Virus record (IMG/VR): IMGVR_UViG_2541047897_000009
DNA: 19,720 nucleotides
Reading direction: 5' to 3' (one strand)
DNA from: a virus
Lineage: Duplodnaviria > Heunggongvirae > Uroviricota > Caudoviricetes
The position numbers and the translations under genes are program-made. This document shows, one piece after another, positions 2,977 to 19,720 of the stretch (positions within the stretch are counted from its first letter, which is position 1; every line of letters begins with the position of its first letter). The notes under the pieces were generated by a model, which saw only the letters and a list, made by a program, of their open reading frames with translations, did not search any database and was not told the origin of the DNA.

Positions 2977-3810
2977 ATGAACATCGAAAAAAGCAGATTA
3001 ATTTCTGAGGCCGCCCCTCATCCGAACGCCTCTCTGGGCACAATTAACGGTAATGAATTTGCCGCAATTGTCCCGGTTATTCCTGGTCATATCGGTGGGC
3101 GTGAAACCAATATTGTTAGCGCAAAAGCGTTACACAAAGCGTTGGGCGTGGGAAAAGACTTCTCTACATGGATCACTGATCGCATCTCTGAGTATGACTT
3201 CACCATTGGGCGCGATTACTCAGTCCATAAAACAATTTCCCCAAATTTGGGGAAAAGCCCGAATGGCGCGGCTTACAGCAAGATTAAGCAGTCTGGCAGA
3301 CCCGGTAAAGACTATCTGTTAAGTGTCGGAATGGCGAAAGAACTGGCAATGATCGAACGCAATGATCAGGGTCGCGCTATCCGCCGTTATTTCATCCAGT
3401 GCGAGGAAGAATTACAGCGTAGCGTGCCTGAAATCGCCGCCCGCTATCGTCGCCAGCTAAAAGCCCGTATCAGTGCCGCAAACAACTTTAAGCCAATGTG
3501 CGATGCGCTGAATATGGCCCGTGCCGAGATGGGTAAAACGACGCAGCAACACCACTACACAAACGAGAGCAATATGATTTCTCGTATCGTTCTTGGTGGG
3601 CTAACTGCTAAGCAGTGGGCGCGGATAAATGGCTATTCTGGCGAACCTCGCGACCATATGAACGCAGAACAGCTTGAGCACCTCTCATATCTCGAAAGCA
3701 CCAATATCACGTTAATTGATATGGGCATGGAATATGAGCAGCGCAAAGGAGAACTCACCCGCCTGTCGCAACGCTGGCTCGCTAAGCGTCTGGAGGCGGT
3801 CCATGTTTAA
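2977..3810 (+). CDS. Phage antirepressor (AntA-like N-terminal domain + KilA-C/AntB-like C-terminal domain)
   Basis: SAKALHKALGVGKDFSTWITDRISEYDFTIGRDY matches the AntA pattern; KDYLLSVGMAKELAMIERNDQGRAIRRYFIQCEEEL matches the KilAC pattern; GGAGA RBS. Confidence 0.85.
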   Translation: MNIEKSRLISEAAPHPNASLGTINGNEFAAIVPVIPGHIGGRETNIVSAKALHKALGVGKDFSTWITDRISEYDFTIGRDYSVHKTISPNLGKSPNGAAYSKIKQSGRPGKDYLLSVGMAKELAMIERNDQGRAIRRYFIQCEEELQRSVPEIAARYRRQLKARISAANNFKPMCDALNMARAEMGKTTQQHHYTNESNMISRIVLGGLTAKQWARINGYSGEPRDHMNAEQLEHLSYLESTNITLIDMGMEYEQRKGELTRLSQRWLAKRLEAVHV

Positions 3811-3985
3811 GCCGACAGGAACACCACAACCTCAAAAACGCTACAAAGATGCCCACGGAGCACTCGTTACTGTCGAAAGCGTGTCTCACAACCGAGTGAC
3901 GTTTTATCGCGACGGGTATCAATCGCCATGCGTACAACCGCTGGCACGTTTCATGAAGGAGTTCGCGGAGGTTAACAAATGCTAA
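3803..3985 (+). CDS. Small phage protein, DUF4222-like (60 aa)
   Basis: Start ATG at 3803 overlaps antirepressor stop (ATGTTTAA); sequence MFKPTGTPQPQKRYKDAHGALVTVESVSHNRVTFYRDGYQSPCVQPLARFMKEF recalls the DUF4222 pattern. Confidence 0.6.
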   Translation: MFKPTGTPQPQKRYKDAHGALVTVESVSHNRVTFYRDGYQSPCVQPLARFMKEFAEVNKC

Positions 3986-4478
3986 CCGCCCAGAAGAAGA
4001 TATTTTCACTGGCCGATATGTCGCCAAAATCCAGCAATATGACAGCAAAATCAGGCATTAATACAGCAGATGCAAGCAAAGTTTATCATTTGCTGGTGGT
4101 AGGAGCGGATGCCTTAACTATGTCAGAAATTACGGTCGATGGTGTTAGCGTTGAGAAGGTCAGCGGCTGCGCCAGAGAATTTCTGGTCGTAGATGGCTTT
4201 CTCTGCTCGCGTAGTGGCTCCACAAAAACCTTCGTCCACACGCGCGACGTTAACGAAATGAGCGCGATGTATTGTGCATCTGGTGCTTCCAATAGTGAGT
4301 TTTCGGAGTCCATAAAAAAGAGCTTGCCGTTATGCGGCAACACGGTTTATGGTTATAAGGCACCTCATAAAACGGGTGCCGGGATTGGCGTCCTGGTAAA
4401 TCGAATGGCGACATATGACGCGCCGAGCGTCTTTTTTTATGTCGTAGGTCTGACTCACCCATTTTTTGGGCGTTGGTG

Positions 4479-4484
4479 TATAAT
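4479..4484 (+). promoter_or_regulatory. Consensus -10 hexamer TATAAT; candidate early promoter of the icd-to-primase operon (poor -35)
   Basis: TATAAT at 4479-4484 preceded by a T-tract; about 155 nt upstream of the icd-like start. Confidence 0.35.
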
Positions 4485-4490
4485 CCAGCG

Positions 4491-4640
4491 CCTTTGTCAA
4501 TCAATGGTGGCTCAGGCAGGGGCTTCTTCGGAAGCGCCGGTATCCATTCGAGCCGGTTACGCCAACCCTGTCTGGGCTACCACCAGCGAAATTGGCGTTT
4601 CCGGTGGTAGCGTTACATGCTATCGAATGGAGGCTGCCAC
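4491..4640 (+). ncRNA. Structured leader; possible P4 CI-like immunity RNA region with seqA/seqB-like repeats
   Basis: UUCG-tetraloop hairpin 4522-4535; 9-bp perfect stem GCTACCACC (4576-4584) / GGTGGTAGC (4603-4611); direct repeats ATGGTGGCT (4504-4512) and ATGGAGGCT (4627-4635), the latter overlapping the icd RBS. Confidence 0.3.
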
Positions 4641-4835
4641 ATGCTGGCTACTACCCCTACCCAAAAACCGCAATTTATCTGGATTATCGCCGCAGTTCGC
4701 CGCGATTGCCCGACAATTACCGCCAAAATTCATCATATTGCTGCCGAGTCTGAACGCGATGCTCGCCGTTCTCTGGTGCGCGATCACGTCTGCTTTTTTG
4801 CTGGTCGTATCCGCATGGAGGTGGCACATGATTAA
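4641..4835 (+). CDS. icd: Host cell division inhibitor Icd-like small protein (64 aa)
   Basis: GGAGG RBS 6 nt upstream; QKPQFIWIIAAVRRD ... ESERDARRSL ... FFAGRI resembles the Icd-like family of P4-type elements (from memory). Confidence 0.6.
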   Translation: MLATTPTQKPQFIWIIAAVRRDCPTITAKIHHIAAESERDARRSLVRDHVCFFAGRIRMEVAHD

Positions 4836-5046
4836 AACCTACGATGTGCATATGGATCCCCTCGAACGCACAAGCCAGATCATCACACTGACAGAAGTGA
4901 TTAACGACATTCTGGTGAGCAACTCTCCCTCACGAGACGAAAGACTGAAGGCGTTACTCGCGATATTGGATCTCGCCGTTCGTGACGTTCATTTCCTGCT
5001 GGAAGGTGGCGAAATGCCAGGAAAAACGGGGGCAACCAATGAATAA
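4828..5046 (+). CDS. Hypothetical small protein (72 aa)
   Basis: GGAGGTGG RBS; ATG overlaps icd stop (ATGATTAA); clean start. Confidence 0.55.
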   Translation: MIKTYDVHMDPLERTSQIITLTEVINDILVSNSPSRDERLKALLAILDLAVRDVHFLLEGGEMPGKTGATNE

Positions 5047-6658: not shown

Positions 6659-7022
6659 AAATGCAGAAATGGCGCTTAGCTCCGCAATCGGAGAGCAGGT
6701 GGCAAAGATTGCTGGCGCTGTGTGGATTCATAACCTTCATTCTACTGGTGAAGAGAAAATGGCAATTCAGACGCCAGAGGGACGCACCATTACTACATCT
6801 CTGAAGGCGTCAGATGTTTGTGATCTGATTTGCGCATTCATGTACCCAGCAATGAGGACTGTCCACGGCGATAAGTGGAAACTTGCGACAACCGCTGAAT
6901 TTGATATGTGGCTAAACAATGATGGCATGCTGACTGATTACGGAATAACCAAGTGGCAGATGCTGGTTAGCCATATCGCAAACGCTATAGACCACGTGGG
7001 GTACGGTGATGCGAAACATTGA
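6651..7022 (+). CDS. Hypothetical protein (123 aa)
   Basis: GGGAGG RBS; 8-nt overlap with upstream gene; overlaps primase start. Confidence 0.6.
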   Translation: MRENAEMALSSAIGEQVAKIAGAVWIHNLHSTGEEKMAIQTPEGRTITTSLKASDVCDLICAFMYPAMRTVHGDKWKLATTAEFDMWLNNDGMLTDYGITKWQMLVSHIANAIDHVGYGDAKH

Positions 7023-9765
7023 TCTTATCCGTCAGGTTATCAGTGCGTCTGAAAACAACTGGCCTCATGTGCTGGGCTGCCTGAACATAAATGTCCCTGA
7101 CTCTCCGCGCCGTCATGCTCCCTGCCCTGCATGTGGGGGCAAAGATCGATTCCGGTTCGATGACAACGGGCGCGGTAGCTTCATCTGTAATCAGTGCGGC
7201 GCTGGTGATGGACTGGATTTAATTAAACGCGTAAATAACTGCGACACAACAGAGGCGGCGCTTCTTGCCGCTGATGTTCTGGGTATTGATTACCGGACAA
7301 CGGAAACACCAGAAGCCACCAGCCAGAAACGGGAACAACTGGAAACCGAGCGCCAGCGACGCGAACAGGAGCGCCTGAAAAGGGCAGAGAAGGACGAACA
7401 ACAAAGACGGGATACGTTTTCCCGTCAGTTTGATGACATGCGCAGAAAGGCTGTAAACGGCAAATCTGATTATCTGGTTGCGAAAGGGGTAGGTGATTTT
7501 ACATTCCCCGTGTTGCCCGATGGATCTCTGTTGCTGGCGCTGGTGGATAAATCCGGCGCAGTAACAGCAGCACAGACTATTACCTCACATGGTGAAAAAA
7601 GACTCCTGACAGGTTCAGCAAAGCGAGGGGCATATCACGCCATAAACGCACCAGAAACAACACAGAGCATCTTAATCGCAGAAGGGCTGGCAACGGCATT
7701 ATCTGCCCATTTAATTCGTCCAGAGGCGCTGACAGTGGCGGCGATTGATGCCGGGAACCTGTTATATGTCGCCCAGGTACTGCGGGATAAATTTCCTTCA
7801 GCACAAATCATCATTGCTGCGGATAACGACCACAGCGAAGGAAGACAAAACACGGGGAGAATAGCAGCAGAAAAAGCAGCTTTATCTGTTTCTGGATGGG
7901 TGGCATTACCCCCGACAGATCACAAAGCAGACTGGAATGATTACCACCAAAAACACGGCATTAAATGCGCCACAGAAGCGTTCAATAAGTCAATGTACCA
8001 ACCACAGGGTAATGGCGTGAAACAGGAGCCACAGACCATTGAGGGAAGCGATTTTAAGGTTATGGATACCGACCCACTGAAACCAAGAATAGAAAGCCGC
8101 GAGGATGGTATTTATTGGGTATCTCCGAGAGCTGACAGCCAGAGTGGAGAAATCATCAATAACGAAAGCTGGTTATGTTCTCCGTTAAGCGTTATCGGTA
8201 CTGGCAGAGACGATAAAGACCAGTATCTCATTCTTCGCTGGCTGTCGTTTGGTTCTGAAACGCCGACAACCGCTGCCATTCCACTGGCTGATATTGGTGA
8301 ACGTGAAGGATGGCGCACACTTAAAGCTGGTGGGGTAAATGTCACGACCAAAAGCAGCCTCAGAGCAATACTGGCAGACTGGCTACAACGCAGTGGCTCT
8401 CGTGAATTGTGGCGTGTTGCTCATGCCACTGGCTGGCAATGCGGAGCGTACATCATGCCTGATGGGGAAATCATCGGAACACCTGAAAATCCTGTGCTGT
8501 TCAGCGGGAGAAGCTCAGCCGCAGCCGGATATACCGTCTCAGGGAGCGCGAAAAGCTGGCGTGATAACGTGGCGCGTCTGGCCTTTGGTAACTATTCAAT
8601 GATGACCGGGATCGGCGCAGCACTGGCAGCGCCATTGATTGGGCTGGTGGGCGCTGACGGGTTCGGCATTCATTTCTATGAGCAGTCGAGCGCAGGTAAG
8701 ACCACCACGGCAAACGTGGCGAGCAGCTTATACGGCAACCCTGATTTACTGCGGCTGACGTGGTACGGAACCGCGCTGGGGCTGGCAAATGAAGCTGCCG
8801 CCCACAATGACGGACTAATGCCGCTTGATGAAGTTGGTCAGGGCGCTGATCCTGTCAGTGTTTCACAGTCTGCCTATGCGTTATTTAACGGTGTAGGGAA
8901 ACTGCAAGGCGCTAAAGATGGTGGAAACCGGGATCTAAAACGCTGGCGTACAGTGGCAATCAGCACCGGAGAAATGGATTTAGAAACATTTATCGCTACT
9001 TCCGGGCGAAAAACCAAAGCCGGGCAACTGGTGCGACTGCTGAATATTCCGTTGAGTAAAGCAGTACGCTTTCACGATTACCAGAACGGAAAACAGCACG
9101 CAGACGCACTGAAAGACGCTTACCAGCATCACCACGGCGCGTCCGGGCGTGAGTGGATTAAATGGCTGGCAGACCACCAGCAACAGGCTATTAAAACTGT
9201 TCGTGATTGCGAAAGCAGATGGAGAAGCCTGATCCCATCCGATTATGGTGAGCAGGTTCACCGTGTAGCCGCGCGATTTGCCATTCTGGAGGCCGCATTG
9301 TTGTTAGGCGAGGTTGTAACAGGCTGGGATGCTCAGACATGCCGTGATGCGATACAGCACAGCTATAACGCATGGTTGCGCGAGTTCGGCACAGGTAACA
9401 AAGAGCATCAGCAGATTATTGAACAAACGGAGGCATTTCTTAATGCCTATGGGCTTAGCCGTTTTGCACCATTTCCATACAGCCCGGCAGATTTGCCCAT
9501 CAAAGATTTAGCCGGATACCGTCAGCGTGGAGAACATGACGAAAGTCCAATGATTTTCTACACATTCCCGGCCACATTTGAAAAGGAGATCGCATGTGGT
9601 TTCAACGCAAAACAGTTTGCTGAAGTGTTGAAAAAAGCCGGGATGCTAACCCCACCAAACAGCGGTCGTGGATACCAAAGAAAATCACCACGTATTCAGG
9701 GACGACAAATAAACGTTTATGTACTCAATTACCAGCCAGGAGATTACAACTCATCTGAAGAATGA
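7009..9765 (+). CDS. Bifunctional primase-helicase, P4 alpha type (zinc-ribbon primase + Toprim + C-terminal NTPase)
   Basis: CPACGG...CNQCG zinc ribbon; Toprim-like ILIAEGLATALS ... IIIAADNDH; Walker-A-like SSAGKTT; 919-aa ORF (GTG 7006 / ATG 7009). Confidence 0.9.
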   Translation: MRNIDLIRQVISASENNWPHVLGCLNINVPDSPRRHAPCPACGGKDRFRFDDNGRGSFICNQCGAGDGLDLIKRVNNCDTTEAALLAADVLGIDYRTTETPEATSQKREQLETERQRREQERLKRAEKDEQQRRDTFSRQFDDMRRKAVNGKSDYLVAKGVGDFTFPVLPDGSLLLALVDKSGAVTAAQTITSHGEKRLLTGSAKRGAYHAINAPETTQSILIAEGLATALSAHLIRPEALTVAAIDAGNLLYVAQVLRDKFPSAQIIIAADNDHSEGRQNTGRIAAEKAALSVSGWVALPPTDHKADWNDYHQKHGIKCATEAFNKSMYQPQGNGVKQEPQTIEGSDFKVMDTDPLKPRIESREDGIYWVSPRADSQSGEIINNESWLCSPLSVIGTGRDDKDQYLILRWLSFGSETPTTAAIPLADIGEREGWRTLKAGGVNVTTKSSLRAILADWLQRSGSRELWRVAHATGWQCGAYIMPDGEIIGTPENPVLFSGRSSAAAGYTVSGSAKSWRDNVARLAFGNYSMMTGIGAALAAPLIGLVGADGFGIHFYEQSSAGKTTTANVASSLYGNPDLLRLTWYGTALGLANEAAAHNDGLMPLDEVGQGADPVSVSQSAYALFNGVGKLQGAKDGGNRDLKRWRTVAISTGEMDLETFIATSGRKTKAGQLVRLLNIPLSKAVRFHDYQNGKQHADALKDAYQHHHGASGREWIKWLADHQQQAIKTVRDCESRWRSLIPSDYGEQVHRVAARFAILEAALLLGEVVTGWDAQTCRDAIQHSYNAWLREFGTGNKEHQQIIEQTEAFLNAYGLSRFAPFPYSPADLPIKDLAGYRQRGEHDESPMIFYTFPATFEKEIACGFNAKQFAEVLKKAGMLTPPNSGRGYQRKSPRIQGRQINVYVLNYQPGDYNSSEE

Positions 9766-10536: not shown

Positions 10537-10998
10537 ATGGAACTAAAATTTATTGATAACCCTGTGCGATTACAGGCCTTTCTTAACGAGCCAGGCAATA
10601 CCGAAAATATTGTTGAGCCGGGGCACACGTACTACATCAAGCCTGATGCGGTATATCTCGGCATCTACGAAGGATTGGTGCTGGCTGGCGTTCATGAAGT
10701 GCGTAACTTCTGGCATAGCATTGTTGAATGCCATGCGGTGTACGCCCCCGGATTCCGTGGTGAATATGCACTGCAAGGGCATCGATTATTCTGCAAGTGG
10801 CTTCTCGAAAACTCACCATTCCTTAACAGCATTACCATGGTTCCTGACACCACGAAATACGGACGGGCAATTATCCGTTTGCTTGGCGCTACCCGTGTTG
10901 GTCACCTTGATGATGCTTATATCAGATGTGGTAAACCCGTCGGCGTAACGCTTTATCAGTTAACTCGGCAACAATATAAGGAATTCAGCGAATGTTAA
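10537..10998 (+). CDS. Hypothetical protein (153 aa); first gene of a coupled 4-gene operon, possibly a virion/ejection-protein assembly factor (P22 gp14-like by position only)
   Basis: Clean ORF; downstream gene start overlaps its stop (ATGTTAA). Confidence 0.65.
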   Translation: MELKFIDNPVRLQAFLNEPGNTENIVEPGHTYYIKPDAVYLGIYEGLVLAGVHEVRNFWHSIVECHAVYAPGFRGEYALQGHRLFCKWLLENSPFLNSITMVPDTTKYGRAIIRLLGATRVGHLDDAYIRCGKPVGVTLYQLTRQQYKEFSEC

Positions 10999-11669
10999 TT
11001 ACCCACATAGCTCATAAACATCTCAATCGTGCCGTATACGAAAAAGGCGGTGATGGTGGTGCCTCTAAAGCTCAGGCGAAGGCCCAGCAGCAGGCAATTG
11101 ATTTGCAGCGCGAGCAGTGGAATACGGTGATGAATAATCTCAAGCCGTATGCAGAAGTCGGATTGCCTGCTTTACAACAACTACAAGGACTGATGACTCT
11201 GGAAGGGCAGAATAAAGCCGCGAATGATTTCTTTGGTTCTGGTTTATATAAAACACAGGCAGATCAGGCCCGTTATCAGAACCTTGTCTCAGCAGAAGCT
11301 ACCGGGGGGCTTGGCTCAACAGCTACCAGTAACCAGTTATCTTCCATTGCGCCCATGCTTTATAACAATTGGCTTAGTGGGCAAATGCAAAATTATGGAA
11401 ACCTGCTAAATGTCGGGATGAATGCGGCATCAGGGCAGGCAACAGCAGGGCAAAACTACGCCAATAATACCGGGCAACTCTTGCAGGGGCTTGGCGCTAT
11501 TCGTGCAGGTCAGGCGCAGCAGCCATCCAGTCTTGCGCGTGGTATTGGTGGGGCGGCATCAGGCGCTTTAGCGGGTGCGCAACTTGGTTCCGTTGTTCCG
11601 GGTATAGGTAATGTCGCCGGGGCTATTGGTGGTGGGCTTATTGGTCTTGTTGGGGGGCTTGGATTCTAA
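10992..11669 (+). CDS. Putative virion internal / DNA-ejection protein (225 aa; P22 gp7-like by size, order and composition)
   Basis: AAGGAA RBS; Q/A-rich; glycine-zipper hydrophobic C-terminus (GIGNVAGAIGGGLIGLVGGLGF). Confidence 0.7.
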   Translation: MLITHIAHKHLNRAVYEKGGDGGASKAQAKAQQQAIDLQREQWNTVMNNLKPYAEVGLPALQQLQGLMTLEGQNKAANDFFGSGLYKTQADQARYQNLVSAEATGGLGSTATSNQLSSIAPMLYNNWLSGQMQNYGNLLNVGMNAASGQATAGQNYANNTGQLLQGLGAIRAGQAQQPSSLARGIGGAASGALAGAQLGSVVPGIGNVAGAIGGGLIGLVGGLGF

Positions 11670-13090
11670 TGGCGACATGGCAACTTGGCGGGCTGCCTAG
11701 CATGGCACCGCAAAATGATAATGCTCCTCGTTCTTCCGTTCCTCAGCCTGTGCAGTATCAGCAGCAGCCAAACGTAGGTTTAATGGCGCTACAGGGGCTA
11801 AGAGGCGTTGCTGAGATTAATCAGCAGGCACGTCAACAACAGCGTAAAGCAGAGTTTCAGAAAGCATATGCCGGGGCTTTTGAGTCTGGAGACAGAAACA
11901 AAATGCGCAGTCTTATTTCTGAGTATCCAGAAGAATTTGAAAGCGTTCAGAAAGGGATGGGCTTTATTGATGACGACCAGAGAAATTCTATTGGTCATCT
12001 TGCGACTAGTGCTCAAATCGCATCTTCGCTCGGAACTGGGGCATTTGGAAAATTCATAGCAGATAACGAAGATGAAATGCGTCGCTTGGGAATTTCTCCT
12101 GAGTCTGTTGCCGAAATGCATGTTAATGATCCACAGGGATTCCAGCGGCTTGCTGGTAGTATGGCACTGTTTTCTCTCGGTCATGAGAAGTATTTCGATA
12201 TCAAAGATCAAATGGAAGGTCGGGATATTGAGCGTGGCAAGTTGGCAGAAACAATCCGCAGCAATCAGGCTGGCGAAGCACTTCAGGCGAGAGGGCAGGA
12301 TATTAGCCGAGCAAATGCGTTAACGTCAGCATATGCACCAACAGCAGCAATGCAGAATTACAATCAGTACGCTCAAATGTTAAAGGAGGATCCAGAGGGG
12401 GCGGCGGCATTTGCGGCAGCGGCTGGAATTAATACAAACGCCAAAAAATTAATGAGTGTTAGAGAAAACGATGATGGCACTGTCACAAAATACTACACAG
12501 ACGGAAGTGAAGAGCAGGGAAAACTAAACCAGCCAATATCTGGAGATGGGTTTCGTCCAATAGCTTTGCCAACAGCCCAAAAGATCATGGAAAAGTCGCC
12601 AGAAGGGGCTAAAAAAGCTGCTGGATTTGCATACAGAGTTAGGGATGCTCTTGATTCAATGGATACACTGAAAGGCCAGCTTAGCCCACAGCGAGTGGCG
12701 ATCATTAATAATGCTTTGGGTAATGGGACGCTGGCTAACTTAACGCTCAGCCCAACAGAGCAGCAATACGTTGTTAATGCTAATGACGCAATAATGGCAA
12801 TACTCCGTCAGGAAACAGGGGCAGCTATCGTACCTGCTGAAATGTCAAAATATTATCAAATGTATTTCCCTCAGCCTGGCGACTCCACAAAAACCATTGA
12901 TACCAAGCGCCGGAAGATGGAAAACCAGTTCAATTCGCTGAAAGCTGCTTCTGGTCGAGCTTATGATGCTTTGCGGGTTATTTCAGCAGTTGACAGAGGG
13001 ACTTCTTCTTCGTCGCAGACATTGCCGCAATCTGAGCAGGTATCACAGCCAGCAGCCAGCAGTAACTTTTCTTCACTATGGGGTGATTAA
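11669..13090 (+). CDS. Putative DNA-ejection / internal virion protein (473 aa; P22 gp20-like by size and order)
   Basis: TAATG overlap with upstream gene; low-complexity Q/A/S-rich termini. Confidence 0.7.
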   Translation: MATWQLGGLPSMAPQNDNAPRSSVPQPVQYQQQPNVGLMALQGLRGVAEINQQARQQQRKAEFQKAYAGAFESGDRNKMRSLISEYPEEFESVQKGMGFIDDDQRNSIGHLATSAQIASSLGTGAFGKFIADNEDEMRRLGISPESVAEMHVNDPQGFQRLAGSMALFSLGHEKYFDIKDQMEGRDIERGKLAETIRSNQAGEALQARGQDISRANALTSAYAPTAAMQNYNQYAQMLKEDPEGAAAFAAAAGINTNAKKLMSVRENDDGTVTKYYTDGSEEQGKLNQPISGDGFRPIALPTAQKIMEKSPEGAKKAAGFAYRVRDALDSMDTLKGQLSPQRVAIINNALGNGTLANLTLSPTEQQYVVNANDAIMAILRQETGAAIVPAEMSKYYQMYFPQPGDSTKTIDTKRRKMENQFNSLKAASGRAYDALRVISAVDRGTSSSSQTLPQSEQVSQPAASSNFSSLWGD

Positions 13091-15195
13091 TGGCTAAAGC
13101 ATGGAAAGATGTTATCGCCTCTCCACAGTATCAGGCGTTAGCACCAGAACAAAAAGCGCAGGCTCAGGAGCAATACTTCAATGAAGTCGTTGCCCCGCAA
13201 GCCGGAGAAAGTGTAGCGCAGGCTAAGCAGGCTTTTTATGCTGCCTATCCACTACCATCAACGAATGAAATAGACCGATCCCAATCAGCAACTCAAAATA
13301 TTCAACATACATCATCTGATAATTCTCTTGCGTCAGGGTATGCAAAGTTAGCTACTCAGCAAAGAGAGGGGCTTGAGCGTTCAGCAGAACAGGGAGCCAG
13401 CCTTGGGGCTGCGATGCGCGATGCTATAACAGGCGAAAGCCGAATGACTCCAGAGATGGCGAGACTGCAAAATGTCGACCTTGCCCCAGAGTTAACCTCA
13501 CTCAGTATGGATGCTCTAAAAGCTCGATGGTCTCAACTTTTCGGCTCTGACGCATCTCAGGAAAAGATTCTTCAGAGCATGGGAGCGAAATTAAGGCAGG
13601 ATGAGAAGGGTAACACTATCGTTTCCCTGCCATCCGGTGATTATGCTCTGAACAAGCCGGGTTTATCGCCGCAAGACGTGGCATCGTTTCTGGCTAATGC
13701 GCTGGCGTTTACACCAGCGGGCAGGGCCGGAACGGTGCTGGGGGCCATAGGGAAATCAGCAGCTACAGATTTAGCACTACAGGGAGCCACCAGCCTTGCT
13801 GGTGGAGAAGATATTGATCCGTTACAAACGGTAATTTCTGCTGGCATTGGCGGCATTGGTAAGGGGCTGGAGAATACAGCGAGTGCGGTTTCGAGGGCTG
13901 TTCGTGGTGATATGGCACCGGAAGCGAAAGCCGCTGTTGATTTTGCATCGGAAAGAAACCTGCCGTTAATGACCAGTGACGTACTGAAAGATAAAAACAC
14001 TGTGCAGAGTCTGGCCCAGAAAACAGGCGAAAAAATCCCTTTTTTTGGAACGGGTACGAACAGGTTGAATCAACAACAGGCACGGGAAAATCTGGTCAGA
14101 ACATATAACGATGGTCTGGGAGGCATTTCAGATAAACAGCTTTATGAATCTGCGACTAAAGGGCAGCAAAAATTCATTGAGGCCGCAGGAAAGCGATATA
14201 ACCGCATAATTGACGCTATGGGGGATACCCCTGTCGATCTCTCAAACACGGTAAAAGCTATCGACAATCAGATTGCCGTGTTAAGCCGCCCGGGCAAATC
14301 TCAGGATAGAGCCGCGGTAAAAGTCTTGCAGCAATTTAAAGACGATATCACCAGCGGACCAAATGACCTGCGTCTGGCGAGAGAAAACAGAACTGACCTT
14401 CGAAAGCGGTTCATGAATTCAAACGAGACAGTTGATAAAGACACGCTCCAGAAAGCCAGCGATATTGTCTACAAGGCATATACGCTGGATATGAGAAGGG
14501 CAGTAGCCCAGAAACTGGGTTCAGAAGAAGCAGCCAATATGGCAAGGGTCGATCGCTCATGGTCTAAATTCAATGACATGATGGGAAGAACGCGCGTTCA
14601 GAAGGCAATAGCCAGCGGCAAGGCCACGCCTGAGGATGTAACAAAACTCGTTTTTAGCCAAAGCTCATCAGAACGTTCTCAGCTTTACAGGCTTCTGGAT
14701 GACAACGGCAGGCAGAACGCACGGGCAGCCATAATACAGAATGCTGTAGATAAGGCGACTGATTCGGCGGGGAATATCAGCGTTGAGAAGTTTATTAACA
14801 CGCTACACCGGAACAGAAAGCAATCCGCAACGTTCTTTAAGGGCGTGCACGGAAAGGAACTGGACGGCATTATTAAATACCTCAACGATACCAGACAGGC
14901 GGCAAAGGTTGACGGTCAGAAATTAAACAGCCAGAAACTTTATGGCCTGCTGGTTGGTGGAGGCGCTATAAATGCGGCAGTTCTGGCGGGGATGCTGAAA
15001 ACGGCTGCGTTTGTTGTTCCTGCTGCTGGTGCCGTAGGCGGAGCAGCGAAGGCATACGAAAGCCCTGTTATACGAAATGCCTTGTTACGTCTGGCAAATA
15101 CGCCAAAAGGTAGCACAGCATATGACAGAGCGATCAGTACGGTCACACAATCACTGACCACAGCAGCACAAGCATCGCAAAAGGAAGCTCAATAA
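13090..15195 (+). CDS. Putative DNA-ejection / internal virion protein (701 aa; P22 gp16-like by position)
   Basis: TAATG overlap with upstream gene; A/Q/G-rich; hydrophobic glycine-rich segment near C-terminus (GLLVGGGAINAAVLAGMLKTAAFVVPAAGAVGGAA). Confidence 0.7.
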   Translation: MAKAWKDVIASPQYQALAPEQKAQAQEQYFNEVVAPQAGESVAQAKQAFYAAYPLPSTNEIDRSQSATQNIQHTSSDNSLASGYAKLATQQREGLERSAEQGASLGAAMRDAITGESRMTPEMARLQNVDLAPELTSLSMDALKARWSQLFGSDASQEKILQSMGAKLRQDEKGNTIVSLPSGDYALNKPGLSPQDVASFLANALAFTPAGRAGTVLGAIGKSAATDLALQGATSLAGGEDIDPLQTVISAGIGGIGKGLENTASAVSRAVRGDMAPEAKAAVDFASERNLPLMTSDVLKDKNTVQSLAQKTGEKIPFFGTGTNRLNQQQARENLVRTYNDGLGGISDKQLYESATKGQQKFIEAAGKRYNRIIDAMGDTPVDLSNTVKAIDNQIAVLSRPGKSQDRAAVKVLQQFKDDITSGPNDLRLARENRTDLRKRFMNSNETVDKDTLQKASDIVYKAYTLDMRRAVAQKLGSEEAANMARVDRSWSKFNDMMGRTRVQKAIASGKATPEDVTKLVFSQSSSERSQLYRLLDDNGRQNARAAIIQNAVDKATDSAGNISVEKFINTLHRNRKQSATFFKGVHGKELDGIIKYLNDTRQAAKVDGQKLNSQKLYGLLVGGGAINAAVLAGMLKTAAFVVPAAGAVGGAAKAYESPVIRNALLRLANTPKGSTAYDRAISTVTQSLTTAAQASQKEAQ

Positions 15196-15257
15196 CAGAT
15201 GGCCATGGATGGTTGGTTATAATAGTAATTAGTATTTTTTTCAAATAGTTATGAACA

Positions 15258-15656
15258 TTAACACTTGCCTTTAACATTGCCGACAAATGAGCCTGTAAAT
15301 GAGCCTATATCAGATCGACTAATTGTTCGTGTATGGATCACTTTTCCGTCATTTGAGATTGCCCATGTGACAAGCGTCAGTTGACCATCTCGATAGCTTC
15401 TTCCCATCATGGCATTCGGAGACAGCGGGTAATAATCAATACCTCCACCTATACCATCTTTTGCCAAGATAAGATCCGCCTTCTCTTTACTTATTACCAA
15501 ATGAAAGGTATCTGGTATAGATGATAACTTATAGTTATACCCATCTGAACTTGAGGCTTCTTGTCCTTTCAGATCACCAATAATCCAGCATTCAGCGTTC
15601 GCTCCAAAAGAAGCAAATAATAAACCGGAGACAACCAATCGCTTCAATTGATTCAC
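15258..15656 (-). CDS. Small secreted (periplasmic) protein, about 132-aa precursor, unknown function
   Basis: Near-perfect RBS AAGGGAGGG 5 nt before a GTG start; N-terminal signal peptide (M)NQLKRLVVSGLLFASFGANA with cleavage after ANA; Cys at both ends of the mature protein; convergent with the ejection-like operon. Confidence 0.6.
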   Translation of the reverse strand: MNQLKRLVVSGLLFASFGANAECWIIGDLKGQEASSSDGYNYKLSSIPDTFHLVISKEKADLILAKDGIGGGIDYYPLSPNAMMGRSYRDGQLTLVTWAISNDGKVIHTRTISRSDIGSFTGSFVGNVKGKC

Positions 15657-15768
15657 ACCAACCCTCCCTTTAGCGTTGTTTAGAATGGCAATCATCATAT
15701 ATCCAAGACATGGCATTTGGTACATAGCTTGGGTCGGGATTTCAAATCCGCCCCCGTTGATGGGGTCG

Positions 15769-16136
15769 TTACAGTACGCGCATATCCGCTTTATGTGAAA
15801 CAGGAAGATTTTTCTGATATCACTGCCACAGCAAAACACCAATTTCGTGACCAGTACGCGCGCGAGGGGTATCAGTTGCAAAAAGTTTTGCAACTACGTC
15901 CGACCAGTACGCGCACGATGGAGGGGAGTACCATAAAACTGTTCTCTACATAAGTCAGAGTGGTGGTGATGTGTTGATTATCGGCGTATATGCGCACAGG
16001 ACGCGCTATGACGATGTTTTATGCGGGTACACCAATCACATGATAAATCGCGTTACATGACCTCTCATGTTGTGCTGGTGGTTATCACGACGTTCTGAAT
16101 CTGGCCTTTGCCTGGTATTTTGCGACAAGTACGCGC
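15769..16136 (+). promoter_or_regulatory. Array of four direct repeats (core CAGTACGCGC) with an embedded 18-bp palindrome
   Basis: TTACAGTACGCGC 15769-15781; GACCAGTACGCGC 15849-15861 and 15902-15914 (identical); GACAAGTACGCGC 16124-16136; palindrome TTGCAAAAAGTTTTGCAA 15876-15893 between copies 2 and 3. Confidence 0.45.
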
Positions 16137-16344
16137 GCGTAGCATCGAAATAATCGGATGGCGTATGCTGCTGGTAATATGAAGACCGATAGCATTAACC
16201 GAAAGGAGAAAGACTTCTCGATAACGGCAAGGGGGCTGAATTGCGAGGCGAGATTAAGCAACTGTCTTGAACGTAAAAATCATGGAGCAACATGATGGTA
16301 CGATTCATTCCATTCTTCGTTCTTTCTGAGCATTGCGTTCAGGC

Positions 16345-16680
16345 TTAGTCAAAATTAGTGTTGCGAGCGGACCTATTAGTAATTGTTGGTGCGATGCGCC
16401 TGTTATGGATTGTTATGGTTGTGGCAGGCCTGATTAATATCCAGTATGACCACCAGCTATGAGAGGCCACCTCAGTGGTTCGCAGTTGCAGGTTTGCACT
16501 CAGGTTCGCAGGGTTTTGGCTACTTTCACGTGCGAACCTGCAGAATTGCAAAGGACAACTAAGTCCTCTGGCCAACTCCCGGTTTATGAGCGACACAGTC
16601 CGCCTGGCGCGTCGTTTTCGTCGAGTGCGCCCATCAGCTTGTCCATGGACTATCCACCACTCGATATTAAAGCTAATCAT
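16345..16680 (-). CDS. Dubious ORF (111 aa) translationally coupled to alpA2; possibly a decayed gene or non-coding structured region
   Basis: ATGA overlap with alpA2 stop, but the protein is W/R-rich and unprotein-like; two + strand frames are also open across the same stretch. Confidence 0.2.
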   Translation of the reverse strand: MISFNIEWWIVHGQADGRTRRKRRARRTVSLINRELARGLSCPLQFCRFARESSQNPANLSANLQLRTTEVASHSWWSYWILIRPATTITIHNRRIAPTITNRSARNTNFD

Positions 16681-16862
16681 TGGTTGCCAGCCCGCGAATC
16701 AAGTTTGTTCTGGATCCAAGCTTCAACCTCCTCAAGCGACCATCTAGCTGATCTACCAATTTTAACTGGCTGTGGAAACGTGCCCGTCTTAACCCATGAG
16801 TAGATTGCCGTTTTCTTGAAGCCCGTTCTGAGCATGACTTCGCTTAATTTGATAAGGCGCAT
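16677..16862 (-). CDS. alpA: AlpA-family HTH regulator (second copy, diverged)
   Basis: 61 aa; LRTGFKKTAIYSWVKTGTFPQPVKIGRSARWSLEEVEAWI; GAGGAG RBS. Confidence 0.85.
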   Translation of the reverse strand: MRLIKLSEVMLRTGFKKTAIYSWVKTGTFPQPVKIGRSARWSLEEVEAWIQNKLDSRAGNQ

Positions 16863-17537: not shown

Positions 17538-17825
17538 ATGATAAGGGACAGGAAAGCTGAAGAGCTGGAGTCAAAAGGGCTATGCCGGAGAGCTGCCACA
17601 CGATGGGCAGAAGTCATGACGCTGGCAGATGGCGATAAAGAACGTGAACATGCAGCAAACAGACGCTCTGAATGTATCCGTAGGGCGGCACGCCCACCAG
17701 CAACTACAGACAGATTCGGAGATTTAAGACAGGCAGTTAAGCGAACTCATTCGGCTCTTGGTATGGATGAGGAAGCGAGAGGGTACTTCAGGCGTTATCG
17801 CGATAGAGATTGCCAGAGACAGTAA
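17538..17825 (+). CDS. PerC-family transcriptional regulator-like protein (95 aa)
   Basis: AEELESKGLCRRAATRWAEVM resembles the conserved PerC/Pch N-terminal motif (from memory); GAGAGG RBS. Confidence 0.65.
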   Translation: MIRDRKAEELESKGLCRRAATRWAEVMTLADGDKEREHAANRRSECIRRAARPPATTDRFGDLRQAVKRTHSALGMDEEARGYFRRYRDRDCQRQ

Positions 17826-18236: not shown

Positions 18237-18698
18237 TCACCAGTGCCTTAGAGTTTCATAATTCATAACTGCTATGGCGATCTCCAGCTTAGTCGTTTCA
18301 AGTATTTCTTCACATAAGACCAGATCATGAATGATGTTTTTGAGTAGCTCCTTATCGATTGCTCCATCAGCCACCCAAACTGCGATGTTTTCCATTTCTC
18401 GCACAAAAAGTTGTACACAATGGCCAAAGCCATTTATCTCAAGAAAGTATGTTGAAAGGGCGATGCTTGATCTTTTATTTCCGTCACTAAAAGCATGGAA
18501 TTTATTGATTGCAAAGAACAAGTGACTTAGTTTGTCTACAAATCCTGGGTAATACCAGTCGTTTTGGATATGCTCAAGGGCACTCGCCAGTACCCCTTGG
18601 TCTCTGATTCCGTGTAAGCCGCCCGTTTTCTCAATGATCCAATCATGAACCCTAATGGCGTGTTCAATATCAAAATAATTGAATTGTATATCGTCCAT
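18237..18698 (-). CDS. Fic/Doc-family protein (death-on-curing-like toxin; 153 aa)
   Basis: Fic/Doc core motif HAFSDGNKRSS (H-x-F-x-D-G-N-K-R); GGGGG RBS 5 nt upstream; 8 bp downstream of partner gene on the same strand. Confidence 0.85.
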   Translation of the reverse strand: MDDIQFNYFDIEHAIRVHDWIIEKTGGLHGIRDQGVLASALEHIQNDWYYPGFVDKLSHLFFAINKFHAFSDGNKRSSIALSTYFLEINGFGHCVQLFVREMENIAVWVADGAIDKELLKNIIHDLVLCEEILETTKLEIAIAVMNYETLRHW

Positions 18699-18706
18699 TT
18701 ATACCC

Positions 18707-19720
18707 CTATCGGTCTTTTAGTCTTTTGAACACTTCTAGGGTTTCTGGGTCGTTCAGGCGCTCTTCAAGTGATTTACTTTTCTCACCCAAGAAACGTTCA
18801 AAGTCCCCTTCAGGTACAGCTCTTACGTAAGCTTCAAGTTTTTCATGCAGCGCATCTCTGAAACAGAGATCCCTACTTGCCATTTTGGTTCTGGCATCTA
18901 GCATCATAGGCTTAAACAATGGATGAGATTCAAATTGTTTAAAAATAGCTTCTGCTTCCTGTTGTGTCAGTTTTCTGCCTAAACGAGAGAATTCTTGTTT
19001 TAATTCATGTGCAATACCTGATTCGAAACCTGCAATAAGAGTTAGAGCTTCGGAGTACATTGTGTCCCGGATTTTCTCTTTTTGAGCAAGATTCAATACC
19101 TTGCGGTACTCGGCCGCGTCTTCGTGGAAAATACTTTGATACACAAGGTTGGTAAACCTTGCATACTTCCAATTATTCCCTTCGACGCATTCATCTAAGG
19201 CATCAGTGAATTGCTTGCGATAGCTTTCTTCTTGAAAAGAAGCCAATAGGTAATTCTCATCACGTTGGTTGATGTACTTGGTATGTCCACCAGCCCTTTC
19301 GGCTAAAGTATCAATGACAATATCAAGCAGGCGCGTACGTATAATCTTGGCTTGCTCACTTTCGACCAGTAGCATGGCGAAGTTCAGGACAGCTCGGTAA
19401 TTAAACACTCCAATAGTAGGAGCCTTGTTACCCTCATTGATGAAGGAGACATGCTCTAACCCTTTGAATTCTTTTAGCTCTCTCCCTTTTATAAGTCGAT
19501 AACCATTGCTCTTGAGTTCATTGCTATGATTGGCGATATACCGTTCCACAGTGGCATCGCTTATACCAAAAATTTCCATAAGTTGACTTTTTGTAAAAAG
19601 TCGTTCTCCATTGAACTCAACTCCACCAAGAGCAAGATGTTTTTCAGCTTGTCGGAGTGCATAGGAGTTGTTCAGAATATTTTGTCTGTCATGAGCGGAG
19701 GTTGTTAAATCTTTAGCCAT
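18707..19720 (-). CDS. RhuM/DinD-like protein (337 aa), upstream partner of the Doc-like gene; start coincides with the window edge
   Basis: AT-rich ORF; overall pattern resembles RhuM-family proteins that commonly pair with Fic/Doc genes (from memory, unverified); stop TAG 8 nt before Doc ATG. Confidence 0.6.
   Translation of the reverse strand: MAKDLTTSAHDRQNILNNSYALRQAEKHLALGGVEFNGERLFTKSQLMEIFGISDATVERYIANHSNELKSNGYRLIKGRELKEFKGLEHVSFINEGNKAPTIGVFNYRAVLNFAMLLVESEQAKIIRTRLLDIVIDTLAERAGGHTKYINQRDENYLLASFQEESYRKQFTDALDECVEGNNWKYARFTNLVYQSIFHEDAAEYRKVLNLAQKEKIRDTMYSEALTLIAGFESGIAHELKQEFSRLGRKLTQQEAEAIFKQFESHPLFKPMMLDARTKMASRDLCFRDALHEKLEAYVRAVPEGDFERFLGEKSKSLEERLNDPETLEVFKRLKDR

Follow-up and report, generated by a model that had tools for sequence, protein, structure and literature searches.

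The hex gene of phage 434 owes its name, 'heterologous exclusion', to the exclusion of P22, the activity by which this named member of its family was defined. A lambda imm434 lysogen excludes P22, a hex-minus lysogen does not, and overexpression of the full-length protein is lethal to cells (PMC3564112). The protein is annotated as 'repressor protection protein'. In the papers found by a literature search, the step at which Hex excludes P22 is not described, and none reports that Hex is exported or treats the family as a defence. Phage P22 carries sieA, orf59a and mnt together, and its SieA protein blocks DNA injection by P22-like phages via the gp16/gp20 conduit (PMC10883804). EcCIMP1, a PICI of E. 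coli MP1 described by Pick, Stadel and Raivio in 2025, is a satellite whose helper is a P22-like phage; it adds superinfection immunity against this helper and has no recognised defence system (PMC11773190).

The present analysis concerns one ORF on the minus strand (positions 15656 to 15258) of a 19,720-nucleotide stretch of DNA, here called the window, which is recorded as viral. The ORF is compared below with the systems just described.

Gene model and family assignment

The ORF, as mechanically delimited, reaches upstream to a TTG at 15893 (211 aa). This extension had been recognised in a first-pass annotation, which placed the real start at GTG 15656, five nucleotides after a ribosome binding site, and the coordinates agree with that placement. 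Read directly from the minus strand, the Shine-Dalgarno sequence AAGGGAGGG occupies 15670-15662 and is followed by TTGGT and by the GTG start codon at 15656-15654, so that 6 nt separate the GGAGG core (15667-15663) from the start codon; the frame closes, also by direct reading, at a TAA stop codon at 15260-15258, giving a product of 132 aa. A minus-strand scan for GGAGG followed 4-9 nt later by a start codon that opens an ORF of 60 aa or more gave this position alone. The Emek orthologue has an initiation region, AAGGAGG-TTGGT-GTG, of matching architecture.

About 125 of 5,426 complete genomes contain the ORF, and four start sites are in use among its annotations. The GTG 15656 start is used for RefSeq protein WP_001426179.1 (132 aa) in one RefSeq genome, NZ_CP191548.1; other RefSeq records start at ATG 15698/15695, which would yield an identical mature protein. 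In four further E. coli alleles every change within the ORF is synonymous and the protein unaltered, while the upstream 244 nt carry 3-9 changes, a sign of selection; the sole natural indel found among E. coli alleles is at 15751, upstream of both the ATG codons and the GTG. The GTG start is supported by the Emek initiation architecture, by the position of the family cysteine (residue 20-21 in most of the 205 full-length members) and by the one 132-aa RefSeq annotation, and the ORF is confirmed as a real gene, most probably starting at GTG 15656.

The first 21 codons (VNQLKRLVVSGLLFASFGANA, 15656-15594) are predicted, from hydrophobicity and the -3/-1 rule, to encode a signal peptide. K5 and R6 lie in the n-region, the h-region spans L7-F17 with a Kyte-Doolittle 11-residue mean of 2.29, alanine is found at -3 and -1, and glutamate at +1, the mature start reading ECW after ANA. 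By rules alone this is the pattern of a Sec/signal peptidase I substrate (positive n-region, h-region of 7-15 residues, small residues at -3/-1, no proline at +1). The following codons (15593-15261) would encode a mature protein of 111 aa and 12.0 kDa, with a GRAVY of -0.22 and no hydrophobic segment (19-residue Kyte-Doolittle maximum 0.57), in which C23 (15590-15588) is mature residue +2 and C132 (15263-15261) is the last residue. The earlier suggestion of a signal peptide cleaved after ANA, a mature protein of about 110 aa and terminal cysteines is thus borne out, and these traits are conserved in the family. A bacterial lipoprotein was considered and rejected: a lipobox is absent, and the cysteine is at +2, after a glutamate (E/D/N/S/Q in most of the family).

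The only PHROG match of the protein is to PHROG 2651 (E 1.3e-22, residues 17-132). By tblastn, full-length similarity at about 30-33% identity was detected to 434 Hex, Sf6 gp38 and Emek orf129 (E 3e-13 to 5e-15), and matches to family members as a whole range from E 5e-15 to 6e-13 at a coverage of 95-98%; for 434 Hex and Sf6 gp38, identity is about 31% in protein alignment and 29.6% in tblastn, with E-values of 4e-13 (434) and 9e-14 (Sf6). A profile search returned 200 clusters at 50% identity, of which the best 150, those listed, are for the most part about 130 aa long with a single domain, and it scored P0001, a 145-aa form of the window protein (98% identical), at E 1.1e-32. In an alignment of 41 sequences, C23 and W98 (the latter in a WxI motif) are invariant, and conservation reaches 90% or more at G126, V128 and C132. 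Pfam, NCBIfam and PADLOC searches gave nothing usable for the window protein or for 41 relatives; in PADLOC-DB 2.0 the window protein matches no defence family, and the 41 members gave chance-level hits only.

To judge from these comparisons the ORF is a member of the Hex / Sf6 gp38 family (PHROG 2651), distantly related to 434 Hex. The family was known already, though little understood, and the window protein is an addition to it; no Pfam family covers PHROG 2651. The proteins of 434, Sf6 and the window are alike in their signal peptide, the xCW mature start, the tryptophan of WxI(T/S) and the C-terminal FVGxVxGxC, and all three genes are carried by temperate mobile elements.

The export signature extends to the rest of the family. 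Lysine or arginine is found in the n-region of 183 of 191 members, in which position -1 is A/G/S in 91% and position -3 is small or aliphatic in 93%; a C-W/Y/F motif is present in 194 of 205 full-length relatives, and a C-terminal cysteine in 188 of the 205. The whole family possesses a cleavable signal peptide and a conserved cysteine pair, which are typical of exported proteins. The N-terminus of a 434 Hex fragment, E43, aligns with the predicted +1 residue, directly after ANS, and because it sits at the homologous site it supports, indirectly, the predicted cleavage. We infer that the window protein is indeed exported and that its disulfide is formed.

Satellite context and cargo cassette

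By its sequence, the element in the window is not a phage but a satellite (PICI) of the EcCIMP1 kind, with ejection-protein genes of the P22 type. It is of the same type as EcCIMP1 and has the same gene order: integrase, AntA, Ash, TOPRIM/DUF927 primase, DUF2824 and ejection genes, a variable slot, AlpA and PerC. The P22-type operon (plus strand, 10537-15195) is made up of gp14/DUF2824 (10537-10998), gp7 (10992-11669), gp20 (11669-13090) and a gp16-like gene (13090-15195), and gave Pfam matches to P22_gp7 (1.9e-72), Inj_translocase (5.7e-58) and DUF2824 (1.3e-60), as well as to a PHROG DNA transfer protein (7e-154). The gp16-like gene ends 62 nt from the minus-strand ORF, in accordance with the convergent arrangement noted earlier. 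Upstream of the ORF, on the same strand, an AlpA-family regulator/excisionase gene (16862-16677) encodes WP_049066248.1, a protein also found in EcCIMP1. The satellite has C4/isrK RNAs and an antirepressor; an Rfam scan of the window gave matches at 4360-4587 only, none of them near the ORF. A megablast search of 15000-16400 against phage genomes gave no match.

The integration site of EcCIMP1, a tRNA-Thr gene near proA rather than the neighbourhood of dinD, sets it apart, as does its gp16-like protein, which is 908 aa long and has a lytic transglycosylase domain. Inhibition of such an activity in the neighbouring ejection protein was considered as a role for the ORF product and set aside, the window gp16-like protein having no Pfam hit and lacking, by eye, the EcCIMP1 motif.

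Comparison with satellites carrying other genes at the slot defined an exchangeable cargo cassette on the minus strand (15650-15202). Homology is perfect through GTGAAT (15656-15651), is lost from 15650 and returns near CCATCCATGGC (15212-15202). The cargo is of low GC content (GC 0.406, GC3 0.33, against 0.478-0.486 and 0.50 in the flanks). Two other cargos were found at this slot in E. coli. One is a 117-aa protein whose sequence predicts several passes through the membrane, the other a 232-aa protein bearing a lipoprotein signal (LLAGC). The three cargos are unrelated to one another, and all are predicted envelope proteins. In EcCIMP1 the slot holds, on the other strand, the 232-aa lipoprotein instead of the window gene; the satellite in which immunity was measured thus has a different cargo, which counts against the explanation preferred below.

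Judged by these boundaries, the gene is a coding cassette that was acquired horizontally and is exchanged right at the start codon. Its base composition is that of a moron, but it is probably not a self-contained one: the satellite backbone supplies promoter region, ribosome binding site and start codon, and the coding cassette alone is exchanged. The Shine-Dalgarno sequence itself precedes another cargo in other E. coli. Between alpA and the cargo lies a conserved, unannotated backbone spacer (minus strand, 16676-15657), whose ORFs have no PHROG or Pfam match. It includes copies of GCGCGTACTG at 15772-15781, 15852-15861 and 15905-15914, with one-mismatch copies at 15997-16006 and 16127-16136; 7 matches were counted against 0.76 expected, 5 of them within the spacer. 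A palindrome of 10+10 nt is found at 15874-15895 (hairpin z-score -3.2). Sharing of the spacer was measured for 15900-15657: these last 244 nt before the GTG are common to about 535 E. coli genomes, with either of two cargos, and the corresponding EcCIMP1 sequence diverges about 100 nt before the ribosome binding site. Regulation of the cargo presumably resides in this spacer. A terminator and promoter scan, with folding of the 62-nt convergent gap, revealed no terminator and weak promoter-like sites only.

Beside different cargos, the gp16-like proteins still share 93% identity, and their differences are not concentrated in any one part. For this reason a pairing between cargo and ejection protein is unsupported, and nothing in these proteins points to them as the target.

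Genomic position of the family and predicted fold of the window protein

The first-pass annotation had likened the position of the gene to that of exclusion or moron genes in P22-like phages, and homologues are indeed located between gene 16 and mnt in genuine P22-like prophages. There the order is mnt, Rap1a-like gene, Hex-like gene, convergent with gene 16; in P22 this interval is filled by sieA, orf59a and mnt. The closest relatives beyond E. coli, of the Emek orf129 type (129 aa, 33% identity), share this placement, converging on the gene 16 homologue. In that complete phage the gene is the last of the mnt operon, after the Rap1a-like gene, whereas the window gene follows the spacer of about 1 kb downstream of alpA. 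In a further subfamily, of 134-135 aa, the gene directly follows a 210-aa 434-type cI repressor gene in 6 of 6 sampled members, overlapping the cI stop codon in five and starting 5 nt after it in the sixth. The window has no S24 repressor, so its gene is not downstream of a 434-type cI; since the Emek-type subfamily also lacks this linkage, cI linkage defines a subfamily and not the family.

These positions bear on the published mechanism of Hex. A cytoplasmic form or fragment would bind LexA-like repressors and block their RecA-stimulated self-cleavage; in the window, the effect would be to stabilise a resident prophage of the P22-like helper. Lysogens lacking hex release 30-fold more phage spontaneously, hex has no effect in a recA-minus host, and the signal-less fragment E43-N103 inhibits repressor cleavage in vitro, for 434 as well as for P22, and complements a hex mutant in part (PMC3564112). 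The strict tie of the Hex subfamily to 434-type cI genes agrees with such a role. The recA-minus result may, however, be uninformative, because induction is abolished in that host anyway. The active fragment corresponds to the N-terminal half of the predicted barrel, was purified with guanidine and begins at the predicted signal peptidase site; the words 'signal', 'periplasm' and 'membrane' do not occur in the text of PMC3564112, where export was never considered. The cleavable signal peptide and the cysteine pair are family-wide, the Emek-type genes are distant from the repressor gene, and the window has its RNAs and antirepressor in place of an S24 repressor. The cytoplasmic anti-RecA mechanism sits uneasily with a family of exported proteins, and as an account of the window gene it is very improbable.

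The position of the gene on a helper-dependent PICI, beside genes for virion components, might also suggest a tool acting on the helper cycle, by which a periplasmic change of lysis timing or virion release, through endolysin or spanin, would favour transfer of the satellite. Its predicted site of action, the periplasm, is also where lysis is completed. PICIs commonly manipulate their helpers, but EcCIMP1 left helper titres unchanged after induction (PMC11773190). Most family members, moreover, are in ordinary prophages and are co-transcribed with cI or mnt, which implies expression while no lysis is under way, and unrelated envelope proteins occupy the same slot. We consider an effect on the helper cycle quite improbable.

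AlphaFold predicts (pLDDT 88.7) a small barrel of nine beta-strands, calycin-like, with residues 3-18 as a detached helix of low confidence. Foldseek, which scores sequence and shape together, returned only soluble, calycin-like barrels. They are binding barrels (FABP/CRABP, lipocalins, the C-terminal domain of NHBA) and the PknI sensor domain, with 7-20% identity and no common motifs, so that the model resembles them in fold class alone. Among 41 members, two touch the Pfam model Lipocalin_4 faintly (E 0.003). A profile search of all PDB sequences for relatives gave chance hits only (E at least 0.57).

The model also bears on an integral outer-membrane beta-barrel of the Lom/Ail/PagP kind, which would alter the cell surface. 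A 'PagP' annotation in phage Huey underlies a tblastn match to a homologue. Against this, the mature protein has just 111 aa and three of the predicted strands, of 5 residues each, are too short to span a membrane; family members end in a cysteine followed by 0-13 variable polar residues, with no aromatic beta-signal; and the barrels returned by Foldseek are soluble. This candidate was rejected, its probability being very slight indeed.

A soluble binding barrel in the periplasm could instead benefit the host, by binding or neutralising something that enters the periplasm, such as a peptidoglycan-hydrolase effector, lysozyme, bacteriocin domain or small hydrophobic compound; improved host fitness would then be the reason why the satellite is kept. 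The binding-barrel matches and the faint Lipocalin_4 similarity are in line with this, as is the co-operonic neighbour in P22-like prophages, which has a signal peptide and belongs to the Rap1a family (PF18602, 9.7e-15) of type VI immunity proteins. The Aeromonas homologues are located in non-phage islands, adjoining resolvase or integrase genes. By contrast, all sampled loci outside Aeromonas are within a phage or satellite, at the exclusion-gene slot; the named member of the family has a phage-exclusion phenotype, and no sequence or profile link to known inhibitor or immunity families was found. A host-benefit role is accordingly unlikely, though less so than the alternatives above.

Proposed function and comparison with known systems

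Periplasmic exclusion of P22-like phages is the most likely function that we can assign to the gene. In the preferred explanation, to which we give about an even chance, the product is a Sec-exported periplasmic barrel of the Hex family, a swappable satellite cargo that excludes superinfecting P22-like phages at the envelope. Translation would start from GTG 15656, the 21-residue signal peptide would be cut after A-N-A, and the 111-aa mature protein would fold in the periplasm as a small, soluble beta-barrel in which a C23-C132 disulfide probably ties the first strand to the last. The cassette would be placed behind a regulatory region, ribosome binding site and start codon supplied by the backbone, in a slot adjoining the ejection-protein genes of an EcCIMP1-like satellite dependent on P22-like helpers. 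The protein may act at a periplasmic step of DNA delivery, for example on assembly or function of the gp7/gp20/gp16 conduit. We infer expression in the resident satellite, the anti-phage role and its target from the comparisons given above.

A broader version of the periplasmic explanation can be put forward tentatively, as somewhat doubtful. The whole Hex family, 434 hex included, would consist of periplasmic, disulfide-stapled barrels that stop DNA delivery by P22-like phages, with specificity residing in the N-terminal half, proposed to be fast-evolving; the effect on RecA and repressor would be a side effect of an unfolded half-barrel fragment, and the satellites would maintain, beside their own ejection-protein genes and under backbone signals, a readily exchanged slot for envelope exclusion factors (periplasmic barrel, membrane protein or lipoprotein) that would account for their superinfection immunity.

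EcCIMP1-like satellites are common in E. coli, and one variable slot of theirs, occupied by any of three unrelated envelope proteins, is the obvious place to seek superinfection-immunity genes. An unannotated E. coli ORF is here linked to hex, a gene named decades ago, and the signal peptide and cysteine pair argue for Hex acting outside the cytoplasm, which would overturn the sole published mechanism. If the periplasmic explanation is true, a block of P22-like DNA delivery from the periplasm would be a soluble counterpart to SieA, and the protein would offer a new probe of the assembly of the gp7/gp20/gp16 conduit.

Small phage-encoded proteins with a signal peptide that block the entry of superinfecting DNA in the periplasm are represented by T4 Sp (spackle) and P1 Sim; no sequence relationship of the window protein to either was detected, and the targets differ. 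SieA of P22, encoded in the equivalent gene 16-mnt interval and expressed by the prophage, is proposed, by analogy, as the functional model. SieA crosses the inner membrane with three segments, lacks a signal peptide and is unrelated to the window protein; the latter was rejected as a homologue of any of the three SieA types, having a mature part with no hydrophobic segment and a PHROG match to 2651 only, and just the genomic slot is common to the two. In comparison with 434 Hex, the window protein appears to represent a divergent third subfamily (132 aa), so far found in E. coli only, and its gene is on a satellite, beside ejection-protein genes, rather than after cI in the PRM operon.

Translation start and coding sequence of the gene

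The minus-strand ORF at 15258-15656, which encodes 132 aa from a GTG start to a TAA stop (15260-15258), is a real gene. It is convergent with the gp16-like gene of the plus strand, which ends at 15195, 62 nt separating the two. Mechanical ORF calling extends the frame far upstream, to a TTG at 15893 (211 aa), as already remarked in the first-pass annotation, where the GTG, placed 5 nt after a near-perfect ribosome-binding site, was proposed as the start. The minus-strand sequence around this codon, ...gctAAAGGGAGGGTTGGTGTGAATCAA..., agrees with the proposal: AAGGGAGGG, at 15670-15662 (-), is followed, five bases on, by the GTG at 15656-15654. GGAGG occurs at 23 sites in the window, and on the minus strand the site of this ORF alone has a start codon 4-9 nt downstream, opening an ORF of at least 60 aa.

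Translation from the GTG gives an identical protein in four other E. coli genomes, whose alleles differ within the ORF at nucleotides 15423 and 15507, both changes being synonymous; the 244 nt located 5' of the ORF carry 3-9 changes and an indel in the same genomes. RefSeq reports four different start sites for the gene, giving 132, 145, 146 and 174 aa (window 15258-15698; E. coli alleles L023-L026), and the alleles annotated in these four ways yield one and the same protein when read from the GTG. A 207-aa version is also present in a collection of 5.8 billion proteins.

Family membership, export signature and predicted fold

A search of this collection returned near-identical E. coli entries only. 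Tblastn comparison against phage genomes revealed full-length matches of 30-33% identity in 16 records, among them phage 434 and lambda imm434 ("repressor protection protein"), Sf6 (gene 38), HK446, HK633, Sf101, Huey, Chlobot, Emek and ST-35. All of these matches belong to PHROG 2651, labelled "unknown function", and no relatives were found in Pfam, NCBIfam, PADLOC or the PDB sequences. Searching 1.84 billion representatives with a profile yielded 200 clusters; of the best 150, most are proteins of about 130 aa made up of a single domain, and the sources named include Escherichia, Salmonella, Citrobacter, Enterobacter, Klebsiella, Yersinia and Aeromonas. Positions C23, W24, G31, W98, G126, V128 and C132 are invariant or nearly so, and the protein is a member of the Hex family, named after Hex ("heterologous exclusion") of phage 434. 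In Huey, the gene underlying the match (PQ850609.1, 25928-26332) is annotated as 'PagP', a lipid A acylation protein; the label was probably assigned automatically to an exported barrel, possibly by its fold.

The protein carries an export signature and a conserved cysteine pair. By rule-based analysis, K5 and R6 precede a hydrophobic segment (L7-F17) and the sequence G-A-N-A|E, where cleavage would leave 111 residues (12.0 kDa, pI 7.0, GRAVY -0.22) in which no hydrophobic segment was found. The predicted signal peptide with cleavage after ANA, the mature protein of about 110 aa and the terminal cysteines noted in the first pass were all recovered, C23 being mature residue 2 and C132 the final residue. 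The signature is kept across relatives. Of the 205 full-length members compared, 194 contain a C-(W/Y/F) motif, mostly at residue 20-21, 190 a strongly hydrophobic stretch ahead of that cysteine, and 188 a cysteine among the last residues. Assuming cleavage one residue ahead of the cysteine, position -1 is A, G or S in 91% of 191 members and a small or aliphatic residue occupies position -3 in 93%, with K or R in the n-region of 183. On these sequence features, export is very probable. A lipoprotein was ruled out, the residue preceding the cysteine being E, D, N, S or Q in most members.

The protein folds as a small barrel. In the AlphaFold2 model (pLDDT 88.7, from a 41-sequence alignment) residues 3-18, the signal peptide, form a detached low-confidence helix, followed by nine strands, of which the first (22-35) and the last (118-131) are the longest. 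Since these two would pair antiparallel in an up-and-down barrel, C23 would come to lie beside C132, and a disulfide closing the barrel is therefore likely. Foldseek comparison with the PDB retrieved FABP/CRABP proteins, lipocalins and NHBA, every E-value being above 0.005, and comparison with BFVD gave no informative match. The protein is unlikely to be an integral outer-membrane barrel: three strands are just 5 residues long, the terminal aromatic signal is lacking and the tails past the last cysteine are variable and polar.

Genomic contexts of relatives and the published mechanism of Hex

The relatives occupy lysogen-expressed exclusion slots: two of their contexts, after cI and next to mnt, are operons of lysogeny-maintenance repressors and so are expressed in the lysogen. 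All six sampled members of the 134-135-aa Hex subfamily lie directly 3' of a 210-aa, 434-type S24 repressor; in five (434/Sf6, P0070, P0040, P0049 and P0045) the gene's start and the cI stop codon overlap, and in P0021 the gene begins 5 nt past cI. Sequence change in Hex outpaces that in the neighbouring 434-type cI (50-72% against 68-89% identity; phage 434, L001, and Hex/cI loci L008, L017, L019, L021 and L022). The change falls mainly in the N-terminal half of mature Hex, the C-terminal half being almost fixed; this pattern of substitutions would be consistent with diversifying pressure on a specificity surface.

In P22-like prophages, a 129-aa subfamily is found in the tightly packed order mnt, Rap1a-like, Hex-like, convergent on the gene 16 homologue. 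The Rap1a-like protein encoded immediately upstream of the Hex-like gene (PF18602, 9.7e-15; prophages L011-L013, 5650-5985) has its own signal peptide, so that expression of the Mnt repressor is accompanied by that of two exported proteins; Rap1a is a type VI immunity fold. Aeromonas members are found in islands adjoining resolvase or integrase genes. The likeness to the exclusion or moron position of P22-like phages, suggested in the first pass, is borne out by the mnt arrangement, and P22 itself carries sieA, orf59a and mnt together (PMC10883804).

In phage 434, Hex is the product of an ORF of 158 aa that lies downstream of cI, overlaps it and is co-transcribed with it from PRM; Salmonella lysogenic for lambda imm434 excludes P22, hex-minus lysogens do not, hence the name (PMC3564112). 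Spontaneous phage release is 30-fold higher from hex-minus lysogens, an effect absent in a recA-minus host, and full-length Hex, when overexpressed, kills the cells (PMC3564112). A 6-kDa fragment, "sHex" (E43 to N103), purified with guanidine, inhibits the RecA-stimulated cleavage of both the 434 and the P22 repressor (PMC3564112). The mechanism proposed on these grounds, cytoplasmic protection of the repressor from RecA-stimulated cleavage, draws support from the partial complementation obtained with cytoplasmic sHex, for which no alternative account was found. It is nevertheless considered of low probability, a cytoplasmic target being hard to reconcile with the family-wide export signal and cysteine pair. 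The recA-minus result is regarded as uninformative, because induction is abolished in such a host anyway. Signal peptides, periplasm and membranes are not mentioned anywhere in that study, and export was not considered (PMC3564112). In the translated 434 sequence (L001:2438-2914), E43 is the first residue past A-N-S, the predicted signal-peptidase site, and N103 falls mid-barrel; the computed masses of fragment and full ORF, 6.8 and 17.5 kDa, agree with the published ones.

The host satellite and its exchangeable cargo slot

The chromosome of E. coli strain P4 matches the window at 100% identity and has the element next to dinD. It is an EcCIMP1-like phage satellite (PICI), not a P22-like prophage: capsid, portal, terminase, tail and lysis genes were not found in the window, which encodes an integrase (1-1254), an AntA antirepressor (2977-3810), an Ash-family protein (3979-5046), a TOPRIM/DUF927 primase (7006-9765), P22-type gp14/DUF2824, gp7, gp20 and gp16-like proteins (10537-15195), AlpA (16677-16862) and PerC (17538-17825). 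Inside or next to the Ash-family gene, Rfam detects isrK (67 bits, 4360-4437, +) and C4 antisense RNA (79.5 bits, 4500-4587, +), which form a P1/P4-type RNA immunity module (4360-4587). At the dinD-proximal end, a Doc/Fic-family toxin gene (153 aa) lies directly downstream of a 337-aa HTH-containing partner (18237-19720, -); the pair is low in GC (0.41) and may be further accessory or defence cargo.

The ORF is swappable cargo on this satellite. The upstream region is common to about 535 of 5,426 complete E. coli genomes, 125 of which contain the ORF. Genomes without it match perfectly across the ribosome-binding site and on to the end of GTGAAT (15651); the homology is lost from 15650, exactly past the second codon, and restarts near CCATCCATGGC (15212-15202). 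In the two such genomes examined, the slot holds a 117-aa protein, WP_000560496.1 (L014:3206-3595), predicted from sequence to be a multi-pass membrane protein; the ribosome-binding site and GTGAAT are thus common to both cargos. In EcCIMP1 the opposite strand encodes a protein of 232 aa that bears a lipoprotein signal (MIKNLLLILSLSLLAGC...; L016:11749-12447). Across E. coli, three unrelated cargos occupy the slot that separates the gp16-like gene from the alpA spacer (window 15202-15656), none of them with a Pfam match; WP_000560496.1 has no PHROG match either. GC is 0.406 in the ORF (GC3 0.33), against 0.478-0.486 in the spacer and ejection genes (GC3 0.50 in gp20 plus gp16). The homology break at the start and the deviating GC indicate that the cargo is foreign and that its translation-start signals are owned by the backbone, to which its transcription signals presumably also belong. 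Within the conserved backbone spacer lie five GCGCGTACTG-like direct repeats, of which three are exact and two have one mismatch, at 15772-16136 (-), 116-480 nt upstream of the GTG (7 matches to the motif in the whole window against 0.76 expected), and a perfect 10+10 palindrome, AGTTGCAAAA/TTTTGCAACT, at 15874-15895 (hairpin z-score -3.2); repeats and palindrome are possibly regulator-binding sites. A promoter and terminator scan gave nothing convincing.

We infer that the protein would exclude superinfecting P22-like phages, acting from the periplasmic side, because the 434 Hex phenotype acts against P22, the slot is equivalent to that of sieA, all three alternative cargos are envelope proteins and EcCIMP1 confers an unexplained immunity. 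Three observations count against this reading: cargo type does not covary with the neighbouring gp16-like protein, the EcCIMP1 phenotype goes with a different cargo, and the sole published mechanism for the family is cytoplasmic (PMC3564112). The chances of an anti-phage role are accordingly judged to be even.

EcCIMP1 is a PICI mobilised by the P22-like phage Kapi1, against which it adds superinfection immunity, no known defence system having been found in it, and its ejection-type genes were labelled merely 'DNA transfer' or possible packaging genes (PMC11773190). The satellite described here resembles EcCIMP1 in gene architecture and encodes an AlpA protein of the same accession, but differs from it in the cargo occupying the slot. 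This cargo adds a divergent new member to a family that is known but little understood, and extends that family to a new type of host element.
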